64,000 nucleotides of DNA from a bacterium (lineage in GTDB: Bacteria; Patescibacteriota; Patescibacteriia; UBA10025), in contig JAKAGM010000001.1 in the NCBI GenBank assembly GCA_021815445.1, positions 67,447 through 131,446 on the forward strand, read 5' to 3'. Shown here piece by piece: positions 2,126 through 57,649 of the stretch. The number at the start of each line of letters is the position of its first letter. Positions within the stretch are counted from its first letter, which is position 1. Below the pieces are notes generated by a model, which did not search any database, was not told the DNA's origin, and worked only from the letters and a program-made list of their open reading frames with translations. A program made the translations under genes and the position numbers.

Positions 2126-2183
2126 TTTTTAAATTGTCAAAACCTTGCGAAATAGGACGTTGTCAACCAGGAGGGAGAATACC

Positions 2184-3512
2184 ATGAAGTGGACCAGCAG
2201 GTTCGTCATGTGCGCGGCATTGTTTTGCCTCATGATCGCGCAGGTTTCGGCACAGCACGCGCCGAGCCGGGACACAACGAATGCCATGAGGTACTTCGAC
2301 AAAATCAAGCTCACCACCGGCCTGAAATGGCTGGACTATATGGTGGGAGATGTGAACCGTGGCACGTACAACGCCGAGAAATTGAACTTAGAAATCGGCA
2401 GCGAGGACTTTAATCTGTACACCTTCGACCTCAAGATGAACGGGTATCATGGAGTGGATCTCGCTGGACTCGGCGCCAACGCCAATGAACAGGCCTCGGG
2501 GTTCACCATTCCTGCGAACTCTGCACTCTCGTTTCGAGGGGTGTACAACAACTGGATTGAGTACGGTTCAAATGTGGCTACCCATGCCGGCGGAGTCTAT
2601 GCTGATTTCCAGCGGGACTCGACCTGGCAAGCCGAACTTGGTGTTGAACAGTTTTTCGCGAAGGCGCCGGAAGTCTACTTTGGGAACCTTATCCGGCGGA
2701 CAGGGGACAACTTTCCGCTCTTTGAACACGTGACGGCCGGGTATTCAGCTCGCTTTAACCAGGATGACGGGAGTGACCATCACTTTGAACACCGCTACCA
2801 GTTTGGAGGCATCATCCCGGTCGTTGACAGCGTCGCGTACATTGCCGGTTCCATAAGCGGGAGGCTGAACCCGGTATCCTGGAACAGTCACGATCGCGGA
2901 TACTATGTGGCGTTTGCACTTCCCGTGTCCTTTCAAGACACTAGCGGATGGGCGCCCAGCGCGTTCGTCAGCTTCAGGTCCAAACCAGGAAGCAAGAGCG
3001 CGATGGCGTTTGGGGGGTTCGGTGGAAAGGCCATCAACTTACCAGTGGTCAATGCTCTTCTCCAGTCCGGTTTTGAAACACAGTTGATTCCGACCCGCGT
3101 GGTGAACAATCGATCATTCAACATCGCTGTTCTCAGCGCGCATACAAGCGAGTTCGGCAGGCTCGCATGGGAGGCGGTCTGGTACAAGTTTGACATCTCG
3201 GAACATGTGTCTGCAGTCGAGTCTGAATACGGGCTGTACTACACGGTTCCAAACTGGTCCCCAGCAGGCCTTAAGAGATGCTTCGTCGGCGTGGTCGGCT
3301 CGCATGAAGACCAGATACTCTTTGACACTAAGACGTACCAGCTCAAGAGTACCGGCCACACGCAGTATATCGTCGAGCTCGGCGGGCGAGCGCGCATCGG
3401 CGTTCCTCGTGACCGTCGCAATGAAAAAGGATTCCTTCGCGTCGGCATATCAACGCTCCTCGGCAGCTCCGGCTACGAGGGCACCATGCTCGAGGCGACG
3501 GCATGGTTTTGA
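2184..3512 (+). CDS. secreted beta-barrel-like protein (possible porin / outer-membrane-type protein)
   Basis: The ORF track starts at a TTG at 2145. The real start is probably the ATG at 2184, preceded by AGGAGGGA. It has an N-terminal signal peptide (MKWTSRFVMCAALFCLMIAQVSAQ), an alternating beta-strand-like composition rich in G/Y/S/N, and a C-terminal ...EATAWF ending in Phe like OMP beta-barrels. Confidence 0.45.
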   Translation: MKWTSRFVMCAALFCLMIAQVSAQHAPSRDTTNAMRYFDKIKLTTGLKWLDYMVGDVNRGTYNAEKLNLEIGSEDFNLYTFDLKMNGYHGVDLAGLGANANEQASGFTIPANSALSFRGVYNNWIEYGSNVATHAGGVYADFQRDSTWQAELGVEQFFAKAPEVYFGNLIRRTGDNFPLFEHVTAGYSARFNQDDGSDHHFEHRYQFGGIIPVVDSVAYIAGSISGRLNPVSWNSHDRGYYVAFALPVSFQDTSGWAPSAFVSFRSKPGSKSAMAFGGFGGKAINLPVVNALLQSGFETQLIPTRVVNNRSFNIAVLSAHTSEFGRLAWEAVWYKFDISEHVSAVESEYGLYYTVPNWSPAGLKRCFVGVVGSHEDQILFDTKTYQLKSTGHTQYIVELGGRARIGVPRDRRNEKGFLRVGISTLLGSSGYEGTMLEATAWF

Positions 3513-3646: not shown

Positions 3647-4420
3647 GTGTCCACAAAAAGCGTTCTGCTCGTCGCACTGGCAATCGGCCTTGTCACGCTG
3701 GTAGCTTCAACACCTACCTACTGGTTCGACTTGCTGCCGTGCTACGGGTTTATTCTGGCAGTGCTTCTCATGGTCCCGGGCGCCAGTAGCCGGTTAGGGC
3801 ATGTGGCTATTGTGCTCGTGCTTGGCTTTACTTTTTTCCTACTCTACACCTTCAAGCTCCAGATGCCGGAATATCTGCTGAGATATTTCACGAGGCCCGG
3901 TCTCGTCATCGGCCGCGGAATGGTCATCTTCGAGACAGTGGCCCTGGGCATTTTGGCTGTCCTGATGCCGAAGGATTTTAAGATTCCTTATGGCATCCGG
4001 GAAATGGACGGCAATAAGCAAGCGATGCTGATTCTCGCTATCTACTGTGCCGTCTCCATCATAGTGCGTAAGACATGCGGTGAGCAGGCATTCAACATTT
4101 TCTTTTTCCTCTTTTCCATCCCAGCGGCCTTCACAATCCTGTTTGTGGAGCTGGCAAGCCCACGCTTCATCACTGCCTGTGGTATAGCTGTAGTTGGATT
4201 ATCCATAGTCGGGATCTTTATGAAGCTGAACATGGTGCAGGCTCTATCCGCTCATCAGGTTGTACTTACCGCCATGATGGCATGTACGGTGATTTTTGCC
4301 GCGATCCTGTACCTTTTCCGCCTGCCGACGGCTGGGGAGGCATCGGCAAGAACTTCTACAAGTTTTACTGATCTCTCTCAGACAACTCCGTATGACGGAG
4401 CACCGTCACGCACTCCTTGA
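3647..4420 (+). CDS. integral membrane protein, ~7 TM, hypothetical
   Basis: GTG start with AAGGAGG 6 nt upstream; strongly hydrophobic 257-aa product. Confidence 0.5.
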   Translation: MSTKSVLLVALAIGLVTLVASTPTYWFDLLPCYGFILAVLLMVPGASSRLGHVAIVLVLGFTFFLLYTFKLQMPEYLLRYFTRPGLVIGRGMVIFETVALGILAVLMPKDFKIPYGIREMDGNKQAMLILAIYCAVSIIVRKTCGEQAFNIFFFLFSIPAAFTILFVELASPRFITACGIAVVGLSIVGIFMKLNMVQALSAHQVVLTAMMACTVIFAAILYLFRLPTAGEASARTSTSFTDLSQTTPYDGAPSRTP

Positions 4421-4520
4421 ACTTCCGTGAGTTGTCCTATTTGCGGCGTTTCCATTCTGGATCGCCGTTTTTTCATATCTAAAACAAGAGGGGTGGCCCA
4501 GTCACTCGCGAGCAGTGGGG

Positions 4521-4549
4521 TTGACATGTCCACGCGTCTGTGATAGTGT
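4521..4549 (+). promoter_or_regulatory. sigma70-like promoter TTGACA-N17-TAGTGT
   Basis: exact -35, 17-nt spacer, TAnnnT -10; same architecture and -10 hexamer as the paralogous promoter at 5068-5096. Confidence 0.45.
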
Positions 4550-4628
4550 GAAGTGCTCTTTGTACAACGAATAGGACTCAATTGCGGGCATAGGATGCCT
4601 GAACGTTCGTTGGAAAAAGGAGTCTCCA

Positions 4629-5003
4629 ATGTCAGTGCCGAGAATACCGGTGATTTTCGTTGCGGGACGAAATGATCTGGGTATCCCCAAAGACGTTTGC
4701 GAACAGATTCGCACCGTGACACCGGCATCCGTCGCCGTCACCAAATCTGTCGCGACCCTTACGCAGTTTTGTGAGGAATCAGTCGTCCCGGATCTGGTCA
4801 TCGTGACCAATCTGGAGAATACGGGGATCGACACGCCGACCGTAATCAAACGGCTCCGTGAGCTCGGTATACAGGTTGCCGTGATGGTGAGCACGCTCAC
4901 CGAATCGGCAATCAGAAGCATGGGAGTGCACATCATCCGGAAACCGGCGCGATTGGGCCCGCTCATTGAGTGCGTCATACGCGCGCTTCCGGCCAGGGCG
5001 TAG
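4629..5003 (+). CDS. single-domain pseudo-receiver (CheY-like fold, phospho-acceptor Asp replaced: ...DLVIVTNLEN...)
   Basis: 124 aa; AAGGAG RBS. Aligns to the CheY receiver fold with conserved T/S (MVSTL) and K (IRKP) but TN at the D57 position and no acidic pair. Confidence 0.55.
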   Translation: MSVPRIPVIFVAGRNDLGIPKDVCEQIRTVTPASVAVTKSVATLTQFCEESVVPDLVIVTNLENTGIDTPTVIKRLRELGIQVAVMVSTLTESAIRSMGVHIIRKPARLGPLIECVIRALPARA

Positions 5004-5024
5004 CAAGTTGTATCTGCACGCCAC

Positions 5025-5060
5025 GCCGCCACCCTACGTTCTCTTGGTGGCGGTTCTTTT
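5025..5060 (+). terminator. rho-independent terminator (GCCGCCACC ... GGTGGCGG + TTCTTTT)
   Basis: 8-9 bp GC stem plus T-run 20 nt after the stop. Confidence 0.6.
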
Positions 5061-5067
5061 GTTACAC

Positions 5068-5096
5068 TTGACGAAATGAAAAGCTTGCGTTAGTGT
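5068..5096 (+). promoter_or_regulatory. sigma70-like promoter TTGACG-N17-TAGTGT
   Basis: same -10 hexamer and spacing as the promoter at 4521-4549. Confidence 0.45.
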
Positions 5097-5166
5097 ACGT
5101 TATTCGACATCATAGGTAAGCCAAAAAAGAAACCCCAAAAAACTGCTCATTCGAAAGGAGTATGCT

Positions 5167-5547
5167 ATGCTTCCAAGTGATTTGCGGATTGTCGTAATGG
5201 GCAAGACCGAAGACATGCCCAGAACGATCACGGAGGAAATTCAGGCCATGTTGCCATCAGCGTTGGTTGAGACCTGGCCGGCAACGCGGAACATCCCTGA
5301 GGGACCGACGGGGTTCAACCTTTGTGTGCTGACGAACAGCACATTCGAGGACGGGTTGACCGCTGTCCAGATCATCGAGGCCAACCCTCGTCCCAGCTTC
5401 CTGATCTTCGTGGATGGTGATACGAGGTCCCAGTTTGAGGGCGCCGGGAGTAATGTTCACCTGGTGGACAAGCCTGCTACGGCAATGAAGCTGGTCGCCG
5501 CAATCCTCGAAGCGGTGCCGGATGAGGAGTTTGCCGCTACTGAGTAG
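5167..5547 (+). CDS. single-domain pseudo-receiver, paralog of 4629..5003 (...FNLCVLTNSTFEDGL..., ...VDKP...)
   Basis: 126 aa; AAGGAG RBS; receiver-like fold with TN replacing the phospho-acceptor Asp, Lys retained. Confidence 0.55.
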   Translation: MLPSDLRIVVMGKTEDMPRTITEEIQAMLPSALVETWPATRNIPEGPTGFNLCVLTNSTFEDGLTAVQIIEANPRPSFLIFVDGDTRSQFEGAGSNVHLVDKPATAMKLVAAILEAVPDEEFAATE

Positions 5548-5575
5548 CTCGTGCAGACTAACAGCAATGTGCTTT

Positions 5576-5606
5576 GCCTCTGTCATGGATGACGGAGGCC
5601 TTTTTT
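5576..5606 (+). terminator. probable terminator (GCCTC-14 nt loop-GAGGC + T6)
   Basis: short GC stem followed by TTTTTT; overlaps the TTG start at 5605 proposed by the ORF track for the next gene. Confidence 0.4.
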
Positions 5607-5634
5607 GTTGCACGTTAAAGGGTATTCTGTTACA

Positions 5635-6384
5635 ATGTGGAAACATTCCACATCCATTATGAACGGAGAAGTAGACAACCAGCCGCTTACAAAAAAACAA
5701 CGACGTGCACTGCGCCGAGAAGAACGCAGGCTTGAAGTGGCAAAGGGGCATCGTAAAGGCGTCATCGGCAAGATTGTTGTTGTCGCCAGCGTCGTTGTGG
5801 TTATCGGGGGGATTGGCTGGCTGATCGTGAAAGGCGGAGGCGGCGCAACAACTCCGCTCGCGCCTGACAATGACCCCTTCAAAGGGTCTGTCACGGCAAA
5901 GGTAGTTATTAATGAGTTTTCTGACCTGCAGTGTCCCGCATGCAAAGCGGCTGAGCCTGTCATTAAGCAGGTGATAGACACCTACGGGGACAAAATAAAG
6001 TTCATCTATAATAATTTCCCTATTCCGTCGCACCAAAACGGCAGAAATTCTGCCATTGCCGGCGAATGCGCCTTCGACCAGGGCAAATTCTGGGAGTTCC
6101 ATGATTTACTTTTTGACAAGCAGGATACCTGGGGTAACATTTCGAATCCGAAAGACACCTTTGTCGCTGATGCTATCTCGCTTGGGATGGACGGCACAAA
6201 ATTTGCCGCGTGCTATGACGGTTCAGACGCAAAGAAGAGGGTAGACTATGACGAGTCCGAAGGCAACGCAGCCGGAGTGAACTCCACGCCGACATTTATA
6301 ATCAACGGGCAAAAGATAGTCGGCGCCCAGCCTTTTGAAGAATTTAAGAAAGTCATTGACGCCAAACTGTCTGCTGTCCAATAA
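5635..6384 (+). CDS. membrane-anchored DsbA-family thiol:disulfide oxidoreductase (CPAC active site)
   Basis: N-terminal TM helix (IGKIVVVASVVVVIGGIGWLIV) then a thioredoxin fold with ...LQCPACKAAEP... and ...STPTFIINGQKIVGAQP...; start uncertain (ATG 5635 or 5659; the track TTG 5605 lies inside a terminator). Confidence 0.65.
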   Translation: MWKHSTSIMNGEVDNQPLTKKQRRALRREERRLEVAKGHRKGVIGKIVVVASVVVVIGGIGWLIVKGGGGATTPLAPDNDPFKGSVTAKVVINEFSDLQCPACKAAEPVIKQVIDTYGDKIKFIYNNFPIPSHQNGRNSAIAGECAFDQGKFWEFHDLLFDKQDTWGNISNPKDTFVADAISLGMDGTKFAACYDGSDAKKRVDYDESEGNAAGVNSTPTFIINGQKIVGAQPFEEFKKVIDAKLSAVQ

Positions 6385-6432: not shown

Positions 6433-6909
6433 ATGATCCAAACTCGTAAAGCTTCACTCAAAGACGGTCCCGTCATCATCGGGCTGCTTTCCGCATTTTA
6501 CAACTTTTCAGATCCCGAGGAGGCTTGGGAAGTTTTTCACCGGGAAATGTCCTTGCACTATCATTTCAGGGTAGCAGAGGAGGAAGGCGAAATACTCGGC
6601 GTCATGAGCTGGAGGATGCACGGCCTGCCCAAGCACGGCATCATGAAGCTCAAGCGGATTGCCGTCGCGCGTGAATATCCCGACAGGGAGGCGGTGCTCG
6701 AAATGCTTTTTGATTCGACAGTCGCTGATGCTGATTATTATTACCGCCAGCAGGAGTCCCAGCTGAGAAAAGTGTACATAGTCACACCTCAGCAAAATTC
6801 TTTCGTTCAAAGTTTCATGGAAGAAAAAGGGATGACGCTTGAAGCCGTCCTGCGAAGCCACTACTACCAGGGCAGGGACGAATGCATGTATTCGCTGTTC
6901 ACAGCGTAA
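6433..6909 (+). CDS. GNAT-fold acetyltransferase-like protein with degenerate acetyl-CoA motif
   Basis: 158 aa; GNAT-like secondary-structure pattern (...ILGVMSW..., ...RIAVAREYPDREAV..., ...NSFVQSFMEEKGM...YYQGRDECMYSL); the Q/RxxGxG/A motif is not conserved. Confidence 0.4.
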   Translation: MIQTRKASLKDGPVIIGLLSAFYNFSDPEEAWEVFHREMSLHYHFRVAEEEGEILGVMSWRMHGLPKHGIMKLKRIAVAREYPDREAVLEMLFDSTVADADYYYRQQESQLRKVYIVTPQQNSFVQSFMEEKGMTLEAVLRSHYYQGRDECMYSLFTA

Positions 6910-7071: not shown

Positions 7072-7473
7072 ATGCCAAAAAATGGGAGTTTGCTGGACGT
7101 CCTGATGTGGGTGGTCGGCGCAACGCTCGGTCTTGCACAGCTATTTCTGCTTCATAGCAGGGGCGCGGCTGTTCTCATGCTGTTTGCCACGTTGTTGTTA
7201 GCGGCCATCAGCTACTATGCCACTATAGAGAGTTGCATGAACCAAAGCCACGAAGTATTTCGCAAACTGTGGTGGCACGGCGGGCTCAAGGAGATCATCA
7301 AGTTCTTGGCCGCACTGGATGCCTTGATGTTGTTTTTGGCTGTGTCTACGGCCCTCGGGAGTTACACTGTATTTTGGCCCGGGGTAATAGCCAGTATTGT
7401 GGCGCTGAATGTCGCCGCGCTCTTTAGCGGTTTGTTTGCCGCGCTGCGTACCCATCTCGACCTCGTTAACTAA
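7072..7473 (+). CDS. small integral membrane protein (3-4 TM), hypothetical
   Basis: GGAGGGAAGA RBS; hydrophobic 133-aa product. Confidence 0.45.
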   Translation: MPKNGSLLDVLMWVVGATLGLAQLFLLHSRGAAVLMLFATLLLAAISYYATIESCMNQSHEVFRKLWWHGGLKEIIKFLAALDALMLFLAVSTALGSYTVFWPGVIASIVALNVAALFSGLFAALRTHLDLVN

Positions 7474-7984: not shown

Positions 7985-10753
7985 ATGGCCCAACCAGCGC
8001 CACAATCATATGTCCTGCTGACCTGCCCTGTCTGTTCCGGGAGCGGGCGAGAGGGCGGCAGGCGCTGTACCCGCTGCCAGGGAAAAGGAGAGGTTGCATG
8101 GCTCTCGGGAGAATATGTGTATTGGGGGCACGCGATAGACAGGCTCAGCATTCTCGAGGAAAAGATGGAGCGCATAGTCAAAGGCCTGATCAACGGCCTT
8201 CTCCTTGCTTTTGGCATTGCGGGGATTGTATTCGCTTTTTTAACTCTCGCTGTTTCCTTGAAAGCCGGTCATCTTCCGTGGCAGTTTCTCGCAGAGAGGA
8301 ACGGCTATATGGCTTTTTTTGCCTTAAGCCTCTTGACGGATCTGTATGCGTATTCACGGATAGACCGCGAATCGACAATGCGCCACTCAGTCAGGCGACG
8401 ATCGTATGAACTCGACGCCACGCTCGAGGAGCCCGATGCGCTGTTTACCCGCTGGGTAGACTCGCCGAAAGAGAACTCAGCTGATGCATCCGTCGCTTAC
8501 ACTCCGCAAGCTATCGCTGCGCTTGAACAGTCCTGGATTTTTGCCCAACGGATCAGACAGCAGACAGTCCACCCTCTCCATCTTTTTGGCACGCTCCTGT
8601 CGCATACGGACGTACGCGTGCTTCTGGGCCGTCTCGGCGTGGATACGCGAATCCTGGCTGAAAAGATAGCCCGTGAAATAGAGCGCTTGGAATTCGGATC
8701 ATCCACGGATACTGATCTGTCTCCAGGCATAAAGACGATTCTCCTCGCAGCGTACCGGGAGGCGTTTATGACGCGCAGGGAACGGGTTGATATTCTCCAG
8801 ATGCTTATTGCCGTAGTCGAGGCGGGGGGAGCTCCGCAGGAGATACTCTATGACATGGAAGTCGAACTCCAGCAAATTCGCAATGTCGCTGAATGGATAC
8901 TGATGCACAGGATAAGGATGGAGCGTAAAAGGACCTGGCAACGCCGGGCGGGCCACAAACCAAAAGGACCCGTCAACCGTGCGTACACGTCACTGGCCAC
9001 TCCATTGCTTGATCGTTTCAGCCATGACCTCACCCATTTGGCAGTTACCGGCTCGCTCCCGCTCTCTGTCGGCCGCGAAAAGGAGCTCGACGAGATTTTT
9101 CGAATCATTGAAGGGGGAAAAGGCAACCCTCTCCTTGTCGGCAATCCGGGCGTGGGCAAGGAAAGCATTCTCGAAAACATCGCGTCGCTCATGGCATCAG
9201 AAGAAGTCCCGGAGATTCTCCAGGACAAGCGTCTCATCTCGCTTTCCGTCGCCTCGCTCGTCGGCAGTTCCGGCCGCCAGGGCGAGCTCGAGGGGAGACT
9301 GATCCAGCTTGTCAATGAAATTGTCCGTGCAGGCAACATCGTCCTGGTGGTGGATAACCTCCAAAATATGGTCGGGGTGTCCACCGAAGGCGCGCAAAAC
9401 CTTGATATTGCCGATATTTTTGCCCAAGCGCTCGAAAAGCAGCTTTTGATCGCACTCGGCACGACGACCCCGCAGGACTATCGCAGGTATATCGAGACTT
9501 CGGGAAGTCTCATGAGAGTTTTCCAGCGCGTGGCTGTGGAAGAACCGGATGAAAATGAAACAATAAAAATTCTTGAAAGCAAAGTCGGATTTGTCGAATA
9601 CAAAAACGGCGTTATGTTTTCTTACAAAGCTCTGGAGCAGATAGTCCGCCTCGCGGGGCGCTATCTCCATGACAGGTTTCAGCCGGAAAAATCAATAGCT
9701 ATCATGGAAGAAGTCGGAGTGCACGTTAGAAAGAGGAAGGGCAAAAACGCTTTAGTGACAGCCGATGATGTCGCCGAAGTGGTTTCCTCGCGAACAAATG
9801 TTCCCGTGACCCGCGTGACGGAAAAAGAAAGCGAGAAGCTCCTCCATCTCGAACAGCGCATCCATCAACGCGTCATCGGGCAGGACGAAGCCGTCATTGC
9901 GGTATCGACGGCGCTCCGTCGCGCTCGGGCCGAGCTCCGCGATATCAAGCGTCCTATCGCCAACCTGCTTTTCCTCGGTCCGACGGGCGTCGGGAAAACA
10001 GAATTGGCAAAAACTGTCGCCGACGTGTATTTCGGGTCTGAGAACACGATGATCCGTCTCGATATGTCCGAGTACCAGGAACAATCGAGCATTAATCGGC
10101 TCATCGGAGCTCCTCCGGGGTACCGCGGAGAAACTGAGGGCGGGTTCCTGACCGAGAGCATCCGCGCGAACCCGTTTTCCCTCCTGCTCCTTGATGAGCT
10201 TGAAAAAGCCCACCCCGACATTCTTAACGTATTTTTGCAGGTCATGGATGACGGACGGCTCACCGATGCGACGGGGAGGACGGTTGACTTTACCAACACG
10301 ATCATCATAGCCACATCTAACGCGGGATCAGTCCGGATCCAGGAGGGTATCAAGTCGGGGCTCACTATCGAGCAAATAAAAGTTTCACTGGTCAATGAAG
10401 AGCTTAACCAGTATTTCAGGCCCGAATTCCTCAACAGATTCGACAGTGTGATAGTCTTCAGGCCCCTTACTTTTGACGAGATAGTGAAGATAGTCAGCCT
10501 GATGCTTGCCCAGGTCGCCGTCCGCCTCTCAGCAAAGGGCATTGCACTCCAGGCCTCCCCGGAAGCGATACAGGAATTAGCGCGCGTCGGATTTGATCCC
10601 GTCTTTGGCGCACGGCCGCTTCGCAGGGCTATCCAAGAGCGGGTGGATAATGCCCTCGCAAGCTATCTCCTGCAAGGAAAATTAGGCAGGCGGGATGTCG
10701 CTGTTCTCGAACCGGGCGGACAGATCCGGGTCGAGCGGGCGCGGGAGTTATAA
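7985..10753 (+). CDS. membrane-anchored ClpA/B/C-family AAA+ ATPase with N-terminal DnaJ-type zinc finger; D1 module degenerate
   Basis: 922 aa. CPVCSGSG/CTRCQGKG (CxxCxGxG x2); two TM helices; two Clp_N-like repeats. D1 has Walker A GNPGVGKES (not GKT) and Walker B VLVVDNLQN (catalytic Glu replaced by Asn). D2 is canonical (GPTGVGKTELAK, LLLLDELEKAHPD, sensor-2 GARPLRR). No long M-domain. Confidence 0.75.
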   Translation: MAQPAPQSYVLLTCPVCSGSGREGGRRCTRCQGKGEVAWLSGEYVYWGHAIDRLSILEEKMERIVKGLINGLLLAFGIAGIVFAFLTLAVSLKAGHLPWQFLAERNGYMAFFALSLLTDLYAYSRIDRESTMRHSVRRRSYELDATLEEPDALFTRWVDSPKENSADASVAYTPQAIAALEQSWIFAQRIRQQTVHPLHLFGTLLSHTDVRVLLGRLGVDTRILAEKIAREIERLEFGSSTDTDLSPGIKTILLAAYREAFMTRRERVDILQMLIAVVEAGGAPQEILYDMEVELQQIRNVAEWILMHRIRMERKRTWQRRAGHKPKGPVNRAYTSLATPLLDRFSHDLTHLAVTGSLPLSVGREKELDEIFRIIEGGKGNPLLVGNPGVGKESILENIASLMASEEVPEILQDKRLISLSVASLVGSSGRQGELEGRLIQLVNEIVRAGNIVLVVDNLQNMVGVSTEGAQNLDIADIFAQALEKQLLIALGTTTPQDYRRYIETSGSLMRVFQRVAVEEPDENETIKILESKVGFVEYKNGVMFSYKALEQIVRLAGRYLHDRFQPEKSIAIMEEVGVHVRKRKGKNALVTADDVAEVVSSRTNVPVTRVTEKESEKLLHLEQRIHQRVIGQDEAVIAVSTALRRARAELRDIKRPIANLLFLGPTGVGKTELAKTVADVYFGSENTMIRLDMSEYQEQSSINRLIGAPPGYRGETEGGFLTESIRANPFSLLLLDELEKAHPDILNVFLQVMDDGRLTDATGRTVDFTNTIIIATSNAGSVRIQEGIKSGLTIEQIKVSLVNEELNQYFRPEFLNRFDSVIVFRPLTFDEIVKIVSLMLAQVAVRLSAKGIALQASPEAIQELARVGFDPVFGARPLRRAIQERVDNALASYLLQGKLGRRDVAVLEPGGQIRVERAREL

Positions 10754-10820: not shown

Positions 10821-11207
10821 CTAAAGCGTGCTGGTGATTCCCGAGTAGACAAAGACGACAATAGCCCATGAAAGCAGCACAACCATAAGGCCGACCACCG
10901 CCCATTTGATGATCTCTTTTCCCTTTGTCACGCGCTGTTCATTGCCTGAGGAGGTCATCCACATAAAACCGCCCATGATGATCATCGCGACGGCGACAAG
11001 ACCGAGGAATCCGAGTGCGTATTGGATGATATTAATGGCAAGACTCCGGGCGTCGGTACTGGGTAAATTAAGGGTTTTTTGGTAATTGCTGCCGGGGTCG
11101 AACTCAATGGCCTCACTTGGCGCCAGCATGGCAAAAGTGAGGACAAAAAGGATGGCAAGACTCAACGCGATACTGATAATGTGAAAGTGTTTTTCCGGCC
11201 GTGGCAT
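10821..11207 (-). CDS. small secreted/membrane protein resembling TrbC/VirB2-type (T4SS pilin-like) proteins common in Patescibacteria
   Basis: signal-peptide-like N-terminus then two hydrophobic helices (...NIIQYALGFLGLVAVAMIIMGGFMWMTSSGNEQRVTKGKEIIKWAVVGLMVVLLSWAIVVF...); start ATG 11207 or TTG 11243. Confidence 0.5.
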   Translation of the reverse strand: MPRPEKHFHIISIALSLAILFVLTFAMLAPSEAIEFDPGSNYQKTLNLPSTDARSLAINIIQYALGFLGLVAVAMIIMGGFMWMTSSGNEQRVTKGKEIIKWAVVGLMVVLLSWAIVVFVYSGITSTL

Positions 11208-11345
11208 AGCTCTAGTATAAAGAAGGAAGCCGCCAATGGTCAATAGGTTCAGAAAGACAGGTTATATGCTGTTACGCGGCTTGACATTATGGCCGAGAAG
11301 GTATACGTTCCCGTGAAGACAGTACATTTCTGCCTGGAGGGAAAT

Positions 11346-40869: not shown

Positions 40870-41361
40870 TTAGGGCCAACGATAGAAGCCGATAAGCATG
40901 TCTTTGCACTTCACACCTTCTGCGGCGGATACGAGGATGACGTCGGAAAGCTGGGCGATGATATAGGCGCCCCGACCGCCTTCGTTAAGCGACGGCGGGA
41001 GATCGTTGAAGCGCATTGATGCAATCCCGTCGGCGCCCGCGTGGTCGAGAATGATGACGTAAAACCACGCCGACGGTTCGTAAATGAGTTTTACGTGTAT
41101 GCGCCTCCATGTGACTTTTTTCTCGACGGTTCGAGCTGAATTCTCGAATGCTTCGGAGATGCCGATGATTGACGACCCGTCGGGTTCGCCGAAATGCATT
41201 GTCGCCATAAGATCCTCGATCTGCTGGACGACAACCTGTCTCTCGGTGAAAGAGTCGAAGGATAGATCCATGACGCAAATGCCTGACGGATCGACAACCG
41301 GGTATGGTTTGCCCGGCGGCCAGTCGTCTTTGACTACCAGGACGGAACTTTTCGTGCGCAT
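40870..41361 (-). CDS. GHKL-type ATPase, anti-sigma regulatory factor (RsbW/SpoIIAB-like Ser/Thr kinase)
   Basis: N box ...GISEAFENS..., G1 ...ILDHAGADGI..., G2 ...NEGGRGAYIIAQLSD... align with SpoIIAB; start at the ATG with AAGAGG RBS (the ORF-track GTG at 41400 is rejected). Confidence 0.5.
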   Translation of the reverse strand: MRTKSSVLVVKDDWPPGKPYPVVDPSGICVMDLSFDSFTERQVVVQQIEDLMATMHFGEPDGSSIIGISEAFENSARTVEKKVTWRRIHVKLIYEPSAWFYVIILDHAGADGIASMRFNDLPPSLNEGGRGAYIIAQLSDVILVSAAEGVKCKDMLIGFYRWP

Positions 41362-41569
41362 CGTATGCCTCTTTTTGAAAGGAACCCCTTTGATGTTCAC
41401 CCAAACGTATCAAGTTCTGTATTATCGGTCAAGAGCAGTCGTTCAGATGAACGAAAAACGGCTTATCTTAGCATTTTTTTGATCATTAGAAATCTTTGCA
41501 AAAAGAGTGAAAATATGCTATGGTTGAAGCAGGTTTGACTCCTATTTTTTCATACACCAGGCAGTATCC

Positions 41570-56188: not shown

Positions 56189-57649
56189 CTACTCAAATAA
56201 GGAGTCACCTACTGACCTAATTCGGTCTTCGGCGAGTTTACAATATTCTTGCGATATATCTATCCCAATATACTTACGTCCCAATCGCTTTGCTGCAACT
56301 GCAGTAGACCCGCTCCCAATAAATGGATCAAGGACGATTCCTTTGGGAGGGCAGAAACACTGAATAAAATCTGTCGGAATTTTATCAGGAAATGTTGCCG
56401 GGTGCCTCCGCTTGAGCGGATTTTTGTCACCAGCGTTAAGATAATCCCAAACCGTCCCGCGGCACTTCATAGTGTTAATCTCCCTAGTTACAGTATTTGT
56501 GGTTGTACCATCAGTTCGTCGATTACCACTTCCAGTCATAATTTTCCCCGCATGCTTTGAAGGAATTTTTAGCGGCTCTTTGTTAAAATATATCGGCCGC
56601 TCTCCCTTTAAAAAAATTGGCATATACTCGTGATCTACTCGAAATCGATACTTCCACCATGCTCCCTCAGTCCCATATTTCCTGTAGATCACGTTTTCAA
56701 ACAACTTAAATCCCGCATTATCGCACCAATCAATTATGGTCCTAAAAGAGGTAAGAGTCTTACCAAAGTTACGAGTTGCATCCTGGATGACCATAGCTAC
56801 AATGCCACCTTCTTTCAGGACGCGATAAAGTTCTATTCCGACTGCAGGCAAATTTAATGAAAAACCATTGTACGCTCGGATATCATCATAAGGTGGTGAG
56901 GTAACAGCCAGGTCAATCGAATTGGAAGGGATTTTTCTTAAAACTTCGACTGCATCCCCACAAATTATTTTATTCAAGGGTAAATCTTCGCACCTTTCCC
57001 TTGTCTTATCAGTTGGCTGGTAGGTCTTCTGTGTTGCACCTTTCTTAATCACATCAAGCACTACTCCTTGCACTGAGACAGAGTTTTTATTTTGGAAAAC
57101 CAGGGACTGCATTCTTTTGTTAGCCGGTTTTAAGCGTATCGACCCTCGTTCTTTATAAAATTTCTTTAATGTCGCTTCGTGGTTATCTATTAGAGCAACA
57201 ACTTTTTGACCGTTTTCTGCAGTAAATTGATGTTTCACTAATACGATATCGCCGTCGTTAATATTCTCATCGGTCATACTGTTACCAACAACCCGAAGAG
57301 CATAGAATTTTCCCTGCCCCGGTAACCTTCCTTTTGGGATAGCGATTGATTCTTTTTGTGATATTGCCTCGATGGGTTGACCGGCTGCGATCATTCCCTC
57401 CAAGGGGATACTGACCATACTCTCACTACTCCGTAACTCAATACCCCTCGCGGCATGATCGTTTCTTGAAAGGTAACCCTTTGAGGATAAGGTATCAATA
57501 TGCTGGTGAATCGTAGACAGAGCTGATAGACGAAAATGCTTGCGAATCTCCTCAAAAGTGGGTGAGTAGCCATTCTCGTCAATAAAGCCCTGGATATAGT
57601 CGAGAATTTGTTTTTGTCTCTTCGTCAGAGTAGCCATAAGTATTGACAA
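56189..57649 (-). CDS. fusion protein: full LexA repressor (wHTH + S24 autopeptidase) fused to a beta-class N4-cytosine/N6-adenine DNA methyltransferase
   Basis: One ORF with no internal stop. N-terminal 200 aa = LexA (...QKQILDYIQGFIDENGYSPTFEEI...; cleavage-site-like IAAGQP; Ser nucleophile VVGNSM; Lys in ATLKKF). C-terminal 280 aa = MTase (motif IV DLAVTSPPY before motif I VLDPFIGSGSTAVAA, beta order). Confidence 0.75.
   Translation of the reverse strand: MSILMATLTKRQKQILDYIQGFIDENGYSPTFEEIRKHFRLSALSTIHQHIDTLSSKGYLSRNDHAARGIELRSSESMVSIPLEGMIAAGQPIEAISQKESIAIPKGRLPGQGKFYALRVVGNSMTDENINDGDIVLVKHQFTAENGQKVVALIDNHEATLKKFYKERGSIRLKPANKRMQSLVFQNKNSVSVQGVVLDVIKKGATQKTYQPTDKTRERCEDLPLNKIICGDAVEVLRKIPSNSIDLAVTSPPYDDIRAYNGFSLNLPAVGIELYRVLKEGGIVAMVIQDATRNFGKTLTSFRTIIDWCDNAGFKLFENVIYRKYGTEGAWWKYRFRVDHEYMPIFLKGERPIYFNKEPLKIPSKHAGKIMTGSGNRRTDGTTTNTVTREINTMKCRGTVWDYLNAGDKNPLKRRHPATFPDKIPTDFIQCFCPPKGIVLDPFIGSGSTAVAAKRLGRKYIGIDISQEYCKLAEDRIRSVGDSLFE

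Follow-up and report, generated by a model that had tools for sequence, protein, structure and literature searches.

Two adjacent single-domain pseudo-receivers with a remodeled phosphorylation pocket in a candidate phyla radiation genome

Introduction

Pseudo-receiver domains are common, and little is known of how they work in bacteria (PMC12632262). In a canonical receiver, the N-terminal pair of acidic residues (position DD) and the acceptor aspartate (position D) are required for binding of the catalytic Mg2+ and for phosphorylation of that aspartate (PMC12632262). Among aspartate-less receivers (ALRs), Asn is the second most common replacement of the acceptor, accounting for 16% (PMC4395418), and a CheY variant with the substitutions D13K and Y106W resists phosphorylation yet takes up the active conformation (PMC4838244). 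Here we describe two adjoining genes in a 64,000-nucleotide stretch (hereafter the window) of contig JAKAGM010000001.1 (assembly GCA_021815445.1, positions 67,447 to 131,446, forward strand), from a member of the Patescibacteriota (UBA10025). The host is a candidate phyla radiation (CPR) genome of roughly 0.9 Mb, of a lineage with very few two-component systems (PMC7137472); proteins identical to A and B are encoded on an 881-kb contig. Gene A (window positions 4629–5003, + strand) and gene B (5167–5547, + strand) encode proteins of 124 and 126 aa, the two small open reading frames (ORFs) that a first-pass annotation, made from the DNA letters alone, had pointed out. The evidence presented below makes it probable that A and B represent one small family of separately transcribed, single-domain aspartate-less pseudo-receivers, which would act as interaction modules independent of phosphorylation.

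Receiver Fold and Homology of the Two Proteins

Scans of A and B against Pfam and NCBIfam returned no relevant match at E ≤ 10, including to the Response_reg model (PF00072), and a PADLOC scan gave nothing. The six minor pseudo-receiver families (PF06490, PF21155, PF21194, PF21695, PF21714 and PF22368) likewise yielded no match, at E ≤ 10 for A and B and at E ≤ 1 for the 14 members of the family described below. With the domain libraries silent, recognition of the proteins as receivers required fold search or profile-profile comparison. The AlphaFold2 model of A, built on an alignment of five orthologues, has a (βα)5 topology (predicted local distance difference test score, pLDDT, 75.2; predicted template modeling score, pTM, 0.73), and the model of B, built on the 14 family members, has this topology with a loop in place of helix α2 (pLDDT 81.7, pTM 0.73). 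Compared with the Protein Data Bank (PDB) by Foldseek, both models matched almost only receiver domains (template modeling score 0.65–0.77, best E ~5e-5), including those of Spo0F, CheY, DivK, MtrA, NarL, DesR, FrzS and RitR and the N-terminal domain of CpaE. Predicted topology and structural matches therefore agree on the CheY-like receiver fold that had been proposed from the letters.

At the sequence level, a profile of the five A orthologues produced chance-level matches only among PDB sequences, and the 14-member family profile reaches PDB receivers, weakly. An exhaustive HMMER search with a profile of the A family plus B recovered a double-receiver protein, P0013 (E 3e-5). When the 14-member family was compared with P0013 by hhalign, the two aligned over 112 columns (probability 92.8%, E 4e-7) with the family motif ‘iTN’ opposite ‘ITD’. 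HMMER profile alignments to PDB receivers placed the family Asn on the D of ‘LTDINMPG’ and ‘ISDVIMPG’, and the family Lys-Pro on the receiver Lys-Pro. Judged from these alignments and from the predicted structures, A and B are receiver-fold proteins homologous to receivers.

One could also regard A and B as members of a non-receiver, flavodoxin-like (βα)5 family that came to resemble receivers by convergence, or as functionless relics of lost two-component systems. The lack of a Pfam or NCBIfam match and of a significant match of the A-only profile among PDB sequences would fit such an origin, as would the small number of two-component systems in Patescibacteria (PMC7137472). We give this explanation hardly any weight, since the family has sequence-level links to true receivers with the Lys-Pro signature in register, its top structural matches are almost exclusively receivers, the A orthologues are under purifying selection (ratio of nonsynonymous to synonymous substitution rates, dN/dS, 0.19–0.29) and the invariant residues are kept across clades that are only 17–28% identical.

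A Remodeled Phosphorylation Pocket

Six columns are invariant among the 14 family sequences (G13, L56, T60, N61, T91 and K105 in A numbering), and in the models five of these six residues lie at the C-terminal ends of β1, β3, β4 and β5, which form the classical active-site face of a receiver. The acceptor position is occupied by an invariant Asn (N61 in A, N57 in B) in each of three independent alignments, none of which brought an Asp to this position, and the preceding position (D-1) by an invariant Thr (T60 in A, T56 in B). The motifs from which a loss of the acceptor had been read (IVTNLEN and VLTNSTF), together with RKP and DKP, are all present in the two proteins; what had been described as replacement of the Asp by Thr-Asn is a replacement by Asn, the Thr being the D-1 residue and no part of it. 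The acidic pair, rightly called degenerate, is replaced by Gly13-Arg14 in A and by Gly12-Lys13 in B, and the Gly is invariant in the family.

On the other side of the pocket, HMMER alignment to the receiver 6tne places Ser88 of A and Asp83 of B at the conserved Thr/Ser position (position T), where hhalign is offset by 2–3 residues. An invariant Thr follows at T+3 (T91 in A, T86 in B). The Lys at the end of β5 is invariant as well, and K105-P106 of A and K102-P103 of B align to the receiver Lys-Pro. The earlier statement that both proteins retain the Thr/Ser and the Lys holds for the Lys in both; for position T it would, by the HMMER alignment, hold for A and not for B. The aromatic switch residue of receivers, three residues before the Lys (K-3), has no counterpart, the position being taken by Ile102 in A and Leu99 in B. 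In sum, three of the five key receiver residues (D and both DD) are lost throughout the family and T is probably lost in B in addition; by the definitions of PMC12632262, A and B are pseudo-receivers of the aspartate-less subset.

With neither the acidic pair nor the Asp, the proteins should be capable of neither catalytic metal binding nor Asp phosphorylation, as far as receiver chemistry can be extrapolated to them, and so would have to act without two-component phosphotransfer. The position of the invariant residues on the old active-site face suggests that the remodeled pocket is still used.

How the pocket might be used can be read in more than one way. Phosphorylation could have moved elsewhere, with the invariant Thr in front of the Asn as acceptor, or the Asn could be deamidated to Asp. 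The Thr-Asn pair is invariant in the family, and CheY D57N, which becomes phosphorylated at Ser56, offers a parallel for a Thr acceptor. An Asn-to-Asp reversion in a receiver has also been reported (PMC4395418). We nevertheless find a shifted phosphorylation site highly improbable: the Mg2+-binding acidic pair required for receiver-catalyzed phosphotransfer has given way to Gly-Arg/Lys, and, as had been noted before, the surroundings hold no histidine kinase, with no histidine-kinase or receiver Pfam domain in the 47 scanned ORFs of the 64-kb window (at least 133 aa, nearly all at least 150 aa). In the family the Asn is followed by Leu, Tyr, Phe, Glu or Ser but in no member by Gly, which does not favor fast deamidation.

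Another reading makes the pocket a sensor, in which a small anion, for instance phosphate or a second-messenger nucleotide, would be bound by the Gly-Arg/Lys, Thr-Asn, Ser/Asp, Thr and Lys residues and act as a switch in place of the phosphoryl group. In the models, the same five invariant residues line the former phosphoryl-binding site, and in receivers the Lys and the hydroxyl residue normally contact the phosphoryl oxygens (PMC12632262). A pseudo-receiver domain that binds cyclic di-GMP is known in ShkA (PMC7010744). A small-ligand sensor is decidedly unlikely, given that no ligand-binding motif was recognized in the A/B family, that the basic pocket residue is not invariant and that conservation of the pocket would be explained equally well by fold stability or by contact with a protein. 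A protein-interaction role for A and B is plausible by analogy with known pseudo-receivers.

One Family, Two Deep Clades

The exhaustive HMMER search described above, of 1.84 billion cluster representatives (E ≤ 1e-3), returned 11 clusters, P0013 among them. The relatives that make up the family are all stand-alone proteins of 120–143 aa and come from metagenome assemblies assigned to Parcubacteria and from metagenome contigs. The closest relatives of A are proteins from metagenome-assembled genomes labeled ‘Parcubacteria group bacterium’, and its orthologues are 57–67% identical. For B no close relative was found: a word-index homologue search returned B alone and a metagenome scan nothing close. 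When a genome collection was scanned with the A profile, matches came from a single species.

The two proteins share about 21% identity and can be aligned from end to end (hhalign E 7.5e-4; also by MAFFT). A neighbor-joining tree divides the family into two clades, the first with A, P0002–P0005, P0007 and P0008–P0010, to which P0016 and P0017, found later, were added for tests across hidden Markov models (HMMs), and the second with B, P0011, P0012, P0014 and P0015. The division was reproduced in these tests, in which a clade-2 HMM that excluded B gave it a score of 56.5 bits and the clade-1 HMM one of 26.8 bits. In tblastn searches, clade-2 queries matched B and not A, and clade-1 queries matched A and not B. 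B is nearer to P0012 and P0014, from other organisms, than to A, and A is nearer to P0002–P0010; the same invariant residues persist in both clades.

The description of A and B as tandem paralogues is therefore correct in that two paralogues stand side by side; given their low identity and their places in two deep clades, they are ancient paralogues and not recent duplicates. A recent tandem duplication that included the promoter can be ruled out, the upstream regions being unalignable and the proteins belonging to different clades. Horizontal acquisition of B, judged by base composition, found no support, as B and the adjoining genes agree in G+C content (0.52–0.58).

A member of each clade was found together in this genome only. 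The genome of locus L008, which has a clade-2 gene only, is as near to the window as the genomes that have only an A-type gene, with 71% identity in the ClpB-like protein encoded downstream (67–70% for the A-only genomes), 61% in the DsbA-like protein (57–63%) and 58% in a GNAT-like protein (57–65%). The pair is best read, from these comparisons, as an ancestral A-B tandem that was kept here and reduced to a single gene elsewhere. The B type evolves much faster than the A type. Taken together, A and B define a small, previously unclassified and Pfam-invisible family of a kind, the stand-alone ALR pseudo-receivers, that is well known.

Signals for Separate Transcription

Each gene appears to be transcribed on its own, in line with the first-pass annotation, which had given each a promoter and a terminator. 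Gene A is preceded by the promoter-like site TTGACA-N17-TAGTGT (4521–4549, + strand), with a TG two bases 5′ of the −10 hexamer (extended −10), and gene B by TTGACG-N17-TAGTGT (5068–5096, + strand). The pattern TTGAC-N16-20-TAGTGT matches the 64 kb twice, at these two sites only, with 0.05 matches expected. Downstream of A, a terminator-like hairpin (5025–5064, + strand) with a 9-bp GC-rich stem and a 12-nt loop is followed by UUCUUUUGUU (−16.7 kcal/mol, z −2.90), and B is closed by a hairpin with CUUUUUUGUU (5576–5609, + strand; −16.7 kcal/mol, z −4.38). A third terminator-like hairpin with a U-run (4443–4474, + strand; −14.8 kcal/mol, z −2.96) ends the upstream gene, which encodes a 257-aa membrane protein, and isolates A from it. 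The z-scores of hairpin stability (−2.9 to −4.4) were computed against shuffled sequences. Both genes have a Shine-Dalgarno sequence, AAAGGAG, 7–8 nt upstream of the ATG; in B it lies in a 5′ leader (5097–5166, + strand) that cannot be aligned to the leader of A.

The two promoters had been called near-identical, which our comparison contradicts: the likeness is one of consensus hexamers only, and the rest of the upstream sequence cannot be aligned. A looser form, TTGAC-N18-TAnnnT, recurs in the window as a general promoter-like motif, at 13 sites where 1.4 would be expected. In orthologous loci, the TTGACA, the TG and the TAnnnT frame of the A site are kept, and the −10 hexamer itself varies (TAGGTT, TATCGT, TAGATT and TAGCAT).

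Both A and B appear to be real coding genes, which for A is supported by the purifying selection noted above; B was judged real on the basis of its distant homologues and its confident model. The order A-B-dsbA was found on nine independently assembled contigs and so is not an assembly artefact.

The Downstream dsbA-clpB-Like Block

Gene B is followed on the same strand by a block of four genes. The first (5659–6384, + strand, with an alternative start TTG at 5605) encodes a DsbA-like thioredoxin-fold protein with an N-terminal transmembrane segment. The second (6433–6909, + strand) encodes a 158-aa, weakly GNAT-like protein in which the usual acetyl-CoA motif is absent; homologues 57–65% identical were present in every related genome examined, with lengths of 158–175 aa across the related loci. 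The third is an ORF for a 133-aa membrane protein (7072–7473, + strand), which had no sequence match when searched by tblastn against the related loci, where a gene of about 126–136 aa fills the same slot; its conservation is therefore one of position only. The last (7985–10753, + strand) is a clpB-like AAA+ gene, whose product has a double CxxCxGxG zinc finger at its N-terminus and hydrophobic segments.

In the window and in the related loci L001/L014, L004, L006/L007, L008/L009 and L016, the gene immediately before the dsbA-like gene is a member of the A/B family. In L001/L014, L004, L006/L007 and L016 it is an A-type gene, followed by dsbA, the GNAT-like gene, the ~130-aa transmembrane protein gene and the clpB-like gene; in L008/L009 exactly this position before dsbA is held by the clade-2 gene P0012. 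Such constancy raises the possibility that the pseudo-receiver serves as an adaptor or regulator of the neighboring block, in which it would bind and tune the ClpB-like AAA+ protein or the DsbA-like protein. This is a specific version of the explanation that we favor, a protein-binding module. Members of either clade precede the dsbA/GNAT-like/transmembrane/clpB-like genes directly in seven lineages whose ClpB is only 67–71% identical to that of the window, and single-domain receivers provide a parallel in CpdR, which primes ClpXP, as does RssB, which delivers RpoS. As a role in this particular block it is possible though unlikely, because terminators set the pseudo-receiver genes apart as transcription units of their own, three genes lie between the pseudo-receiver and clpB, and the more distant family members do not stand beside the dsbA/clpB block.

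Several other features of this region deserve mention. The ClpB-like protein begins with CPVCSGSG...CTRCQGKG, followed by segments that probably span the membrane and then by Clp_N and AAA domains, an unusual membrane-anchored disaggregase architecture that is kept in related genomes, including L008 (8307–11075). Just 3′ of clpB, on the opposite strand, L006 (8580–8996) and L008 (11468–11971) carry a T4SS_pilin gene (PF18895), and in the same place of the window (~10830–11231, − strand) tblastn finds a stretch with 63% identity. Upstream of A, a gene at 2145–3512 (+ strand) encodes a 455-aa protein with no Pfam match, a signal-peptide-like N-terminus and the C-terminal end ...EATAWF, kept in L001 (52%) and L004 (33%). 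Such an aromatic residue at the C-terminus, a typical mark of outer-membrane β-barrels, is odd for a CPR bacterium.

A Conserved Leader Upstream of Gene A

The 79-nt 5′ leader of A (4550–4628, + strand) contains elements that are conserved across orthologous loci. It has a GTGCTCTTT box, which is complementary to the Shine-Dalgarno sequence, GAATAGGACTC, with GAATAGGA invariant, and a short hairpin, GGCA-TAGGA-TGCC, with AUAGGA in its loop, ahead of the Shine-Dalgarno AAAGGAG. We compared the leader among the five closest lineages (window 4550–4628, L001 5951–6036, L004 5922–6000, L005 5914–6000 and L006 2852–2932). It is far better conserved, with long invariant runs, than the synonymous sites of the A coding sequence, which are near saturation among the orthologues (proportion of synonymous differences, pS, 0.55–0.65).

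Support from predicted structure is weak. RNAalifold gives a fold of −5.1 kcal/mol in which one pair is compensatory, through a change in L001; the single-sequence fold is not significant (z −0.98). No Rfam family reached its gathering threshold in the window, with chance-level matches only in 4400–5700, and searches of the window and of the related loci fetched gave no homologue of CsrA or Hfq. The window has just one further exact copy of the GTGCTCTTT box, within a coding region, and shows no enrichment of it; the leader motifs were found neither in the more distant L016 nor in the leader of B. In its sequence, then, the leader of A resembles a CsrA-type or anti-Shine-Dalgarno translational control element, with weak structural statistics.

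The leader, the pair and the block could all be parts of one lineage-specific signaling device in CPR bacteria with reduced genomes, in which the rebuilt pocket binds a ligand or partner, A and B together, for example as a heterodimer, control the adjacent ClpB-like and DsbA-like genes of envelope proteostasis, and the leader gates the expression of A. In such a device, the two AUAGGA motifs and the 5′ box complementary to the Shine-Dalgarno sequence would form a CsrA-like or anti-Shine-Dalgarno switch. We consider so elaborate an arrangement improbable.

Other Regulatory Genes in the Window

The only signaling protein that had been suggested as a possible neighbor, an RsbW-like kinase, did not withstand closer inspection. 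The ORF (40870–41400, − strand), which lies 36 kb from A and B, has only a sub-threshold HATPase_c_2 match (E 0.003, 17.9 bits, where 27.4 bits are required). No PDB sequence is related to it, and a link between it and A or B has no support. The only significant HATPase_c match among the scanned ORFs of the window is GyrB. Elsewhere in the window (56189–57649, − strand), a 486-aa ORF encodes a LexA-methylase fusion, made up of a LexA DNA-binding domain (Pfam E 3e-19), an S24 self-cleaving peptidase (8e-27) and an N6/N4 DNA methyltransferase (4e-37).

Proposed Function and Significance

Most likely, A and B are small protein-binding regulators that are not controlled by a kinase. Their activity would be set by abundance, through the promoters that each gene has for itself and, for A, through the conserved 5′ leader. 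The remodeled pocket may lock the protein in one conformation or may itself serve as a binding surface; in the locked case, the basic side chain in the second place of the former acidic pair (DD2) would mimic a phosphorylation-independent activation of the CheY D13K type.

Several observations weigh against this interpretation or limit its reach. The models are of medium confidence, built as they are on shallow alignments of 5 and 14 sequences, and residue equivalences rest on sequence and profile alignments; around β4, the HMMER and hhalign alignments differ by 2–3 positions. A single one of the 14 family members comes near Response_reg (PF00072), at E 0.064. The residue after the invariant Gly is basic (Arg or Lys) in 9 of the 14 sequences and thus not universally so. 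The distant members P0008, P0009, P0014 and P0015 are located elsewhere, beside a PEBP-family gene or rpmF, and the adjacency to dsbA and clpB may reflect just the shared ancestry of related genomes.

The finding as such is real and only moderately surprising, pseudo-receivers being a known class. Censuses of pseudo-receivers rely on PF00072, which misses the A/B family entirely; since the six minor families fail to detect it too, a census on any of these models would pass it over. A minimal, stand-alone and strongly conserved pseudo-receiver of the Asn type would be a simple system in which to study how a receiver functions after phosphorylation has been abandoned. Its natural combination of a basic DD2 residue with an Asn acceptor has a parallel in classic CheY mutations. 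In practical terms the gain is modest and consists of better annotation for about a dozen clusters of hypothetical proteins and of a candidate regulator for the conserved dsbA/clpB-like block. Most worth an experiment are the rebuilt pocket and the leader, both of them conserved, and the presence of two ancient paralogues at a single locus.

Comparison With Known Systems

Among larger proteins with a related domain, the N-terminal pseudo-receivers of FrzS and CpaE/TadZ (PDB 2gkg/2nt4, 4dn6 and 4dad) match the model of A with template modeling scores of ~0.61–0.73. They differ from A and B in being domains within larger proteins, and no sequence similarity was detected. In size and domain organization, A and B are closer to the single-domain response regulators CheY, DivK, Spo0F, CpdR and SdrG, with which they share a length of ~120–130 aa, the fold and the lack of an output domain; regulators of this kind are among the best structural matches of both proteins. 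The single-domain regulators, in contrast, possess the full set of Asp, Asp-Asp, Thr and Lys, and it is phosphorylation that controls them.

CheY can also be compared in its mutant forms. The D57N substitution renders CheY unphosphorylatable, and the D13K and D57N mutants resemble A and B in having a basic DD2 residue and an Asn acceptor, respectively. The CheY mutants, however, are laboratory forms with a known partner, FliM, and the aromatic switch residue is missing from A and B.

A natural counterpart to the pocket of B is found in RitR of Streptococcus (PDB 5u8m), where Lys10, Asn53 and Asp81 (PMC4395418) correspond to Lys13, Asn57 and, if the HMMER alignment is followed at T, Asp83 of B at DD2, D and T. 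RitR ranked 17th among the Foldseek matches of B. It has a DNA-binding output domain and has been described as a redox sensor, whereas A and B have no output domain. Since RitR and B show no sequence relationship beyond the general receiver level, the shared substitutions are probably convergent.

With ALR and pseudo-receiver domains at large (PMC12632262, PMC4395418), A and B have in common the receiver fold and homology; like them, they have lost the acceptor Asp and the acidic pair and keep the Lys-Pro. They depart from them in their invisibility to PF00072 and the six minor families and in the absence of an output domain. Within this known class, the A/B family is set apart from other ALRs by an invariant set of its own: the Gly at the former acidic pair, the Thr-Asn at the former acceptor, the Thr at T+3 and the Lys.

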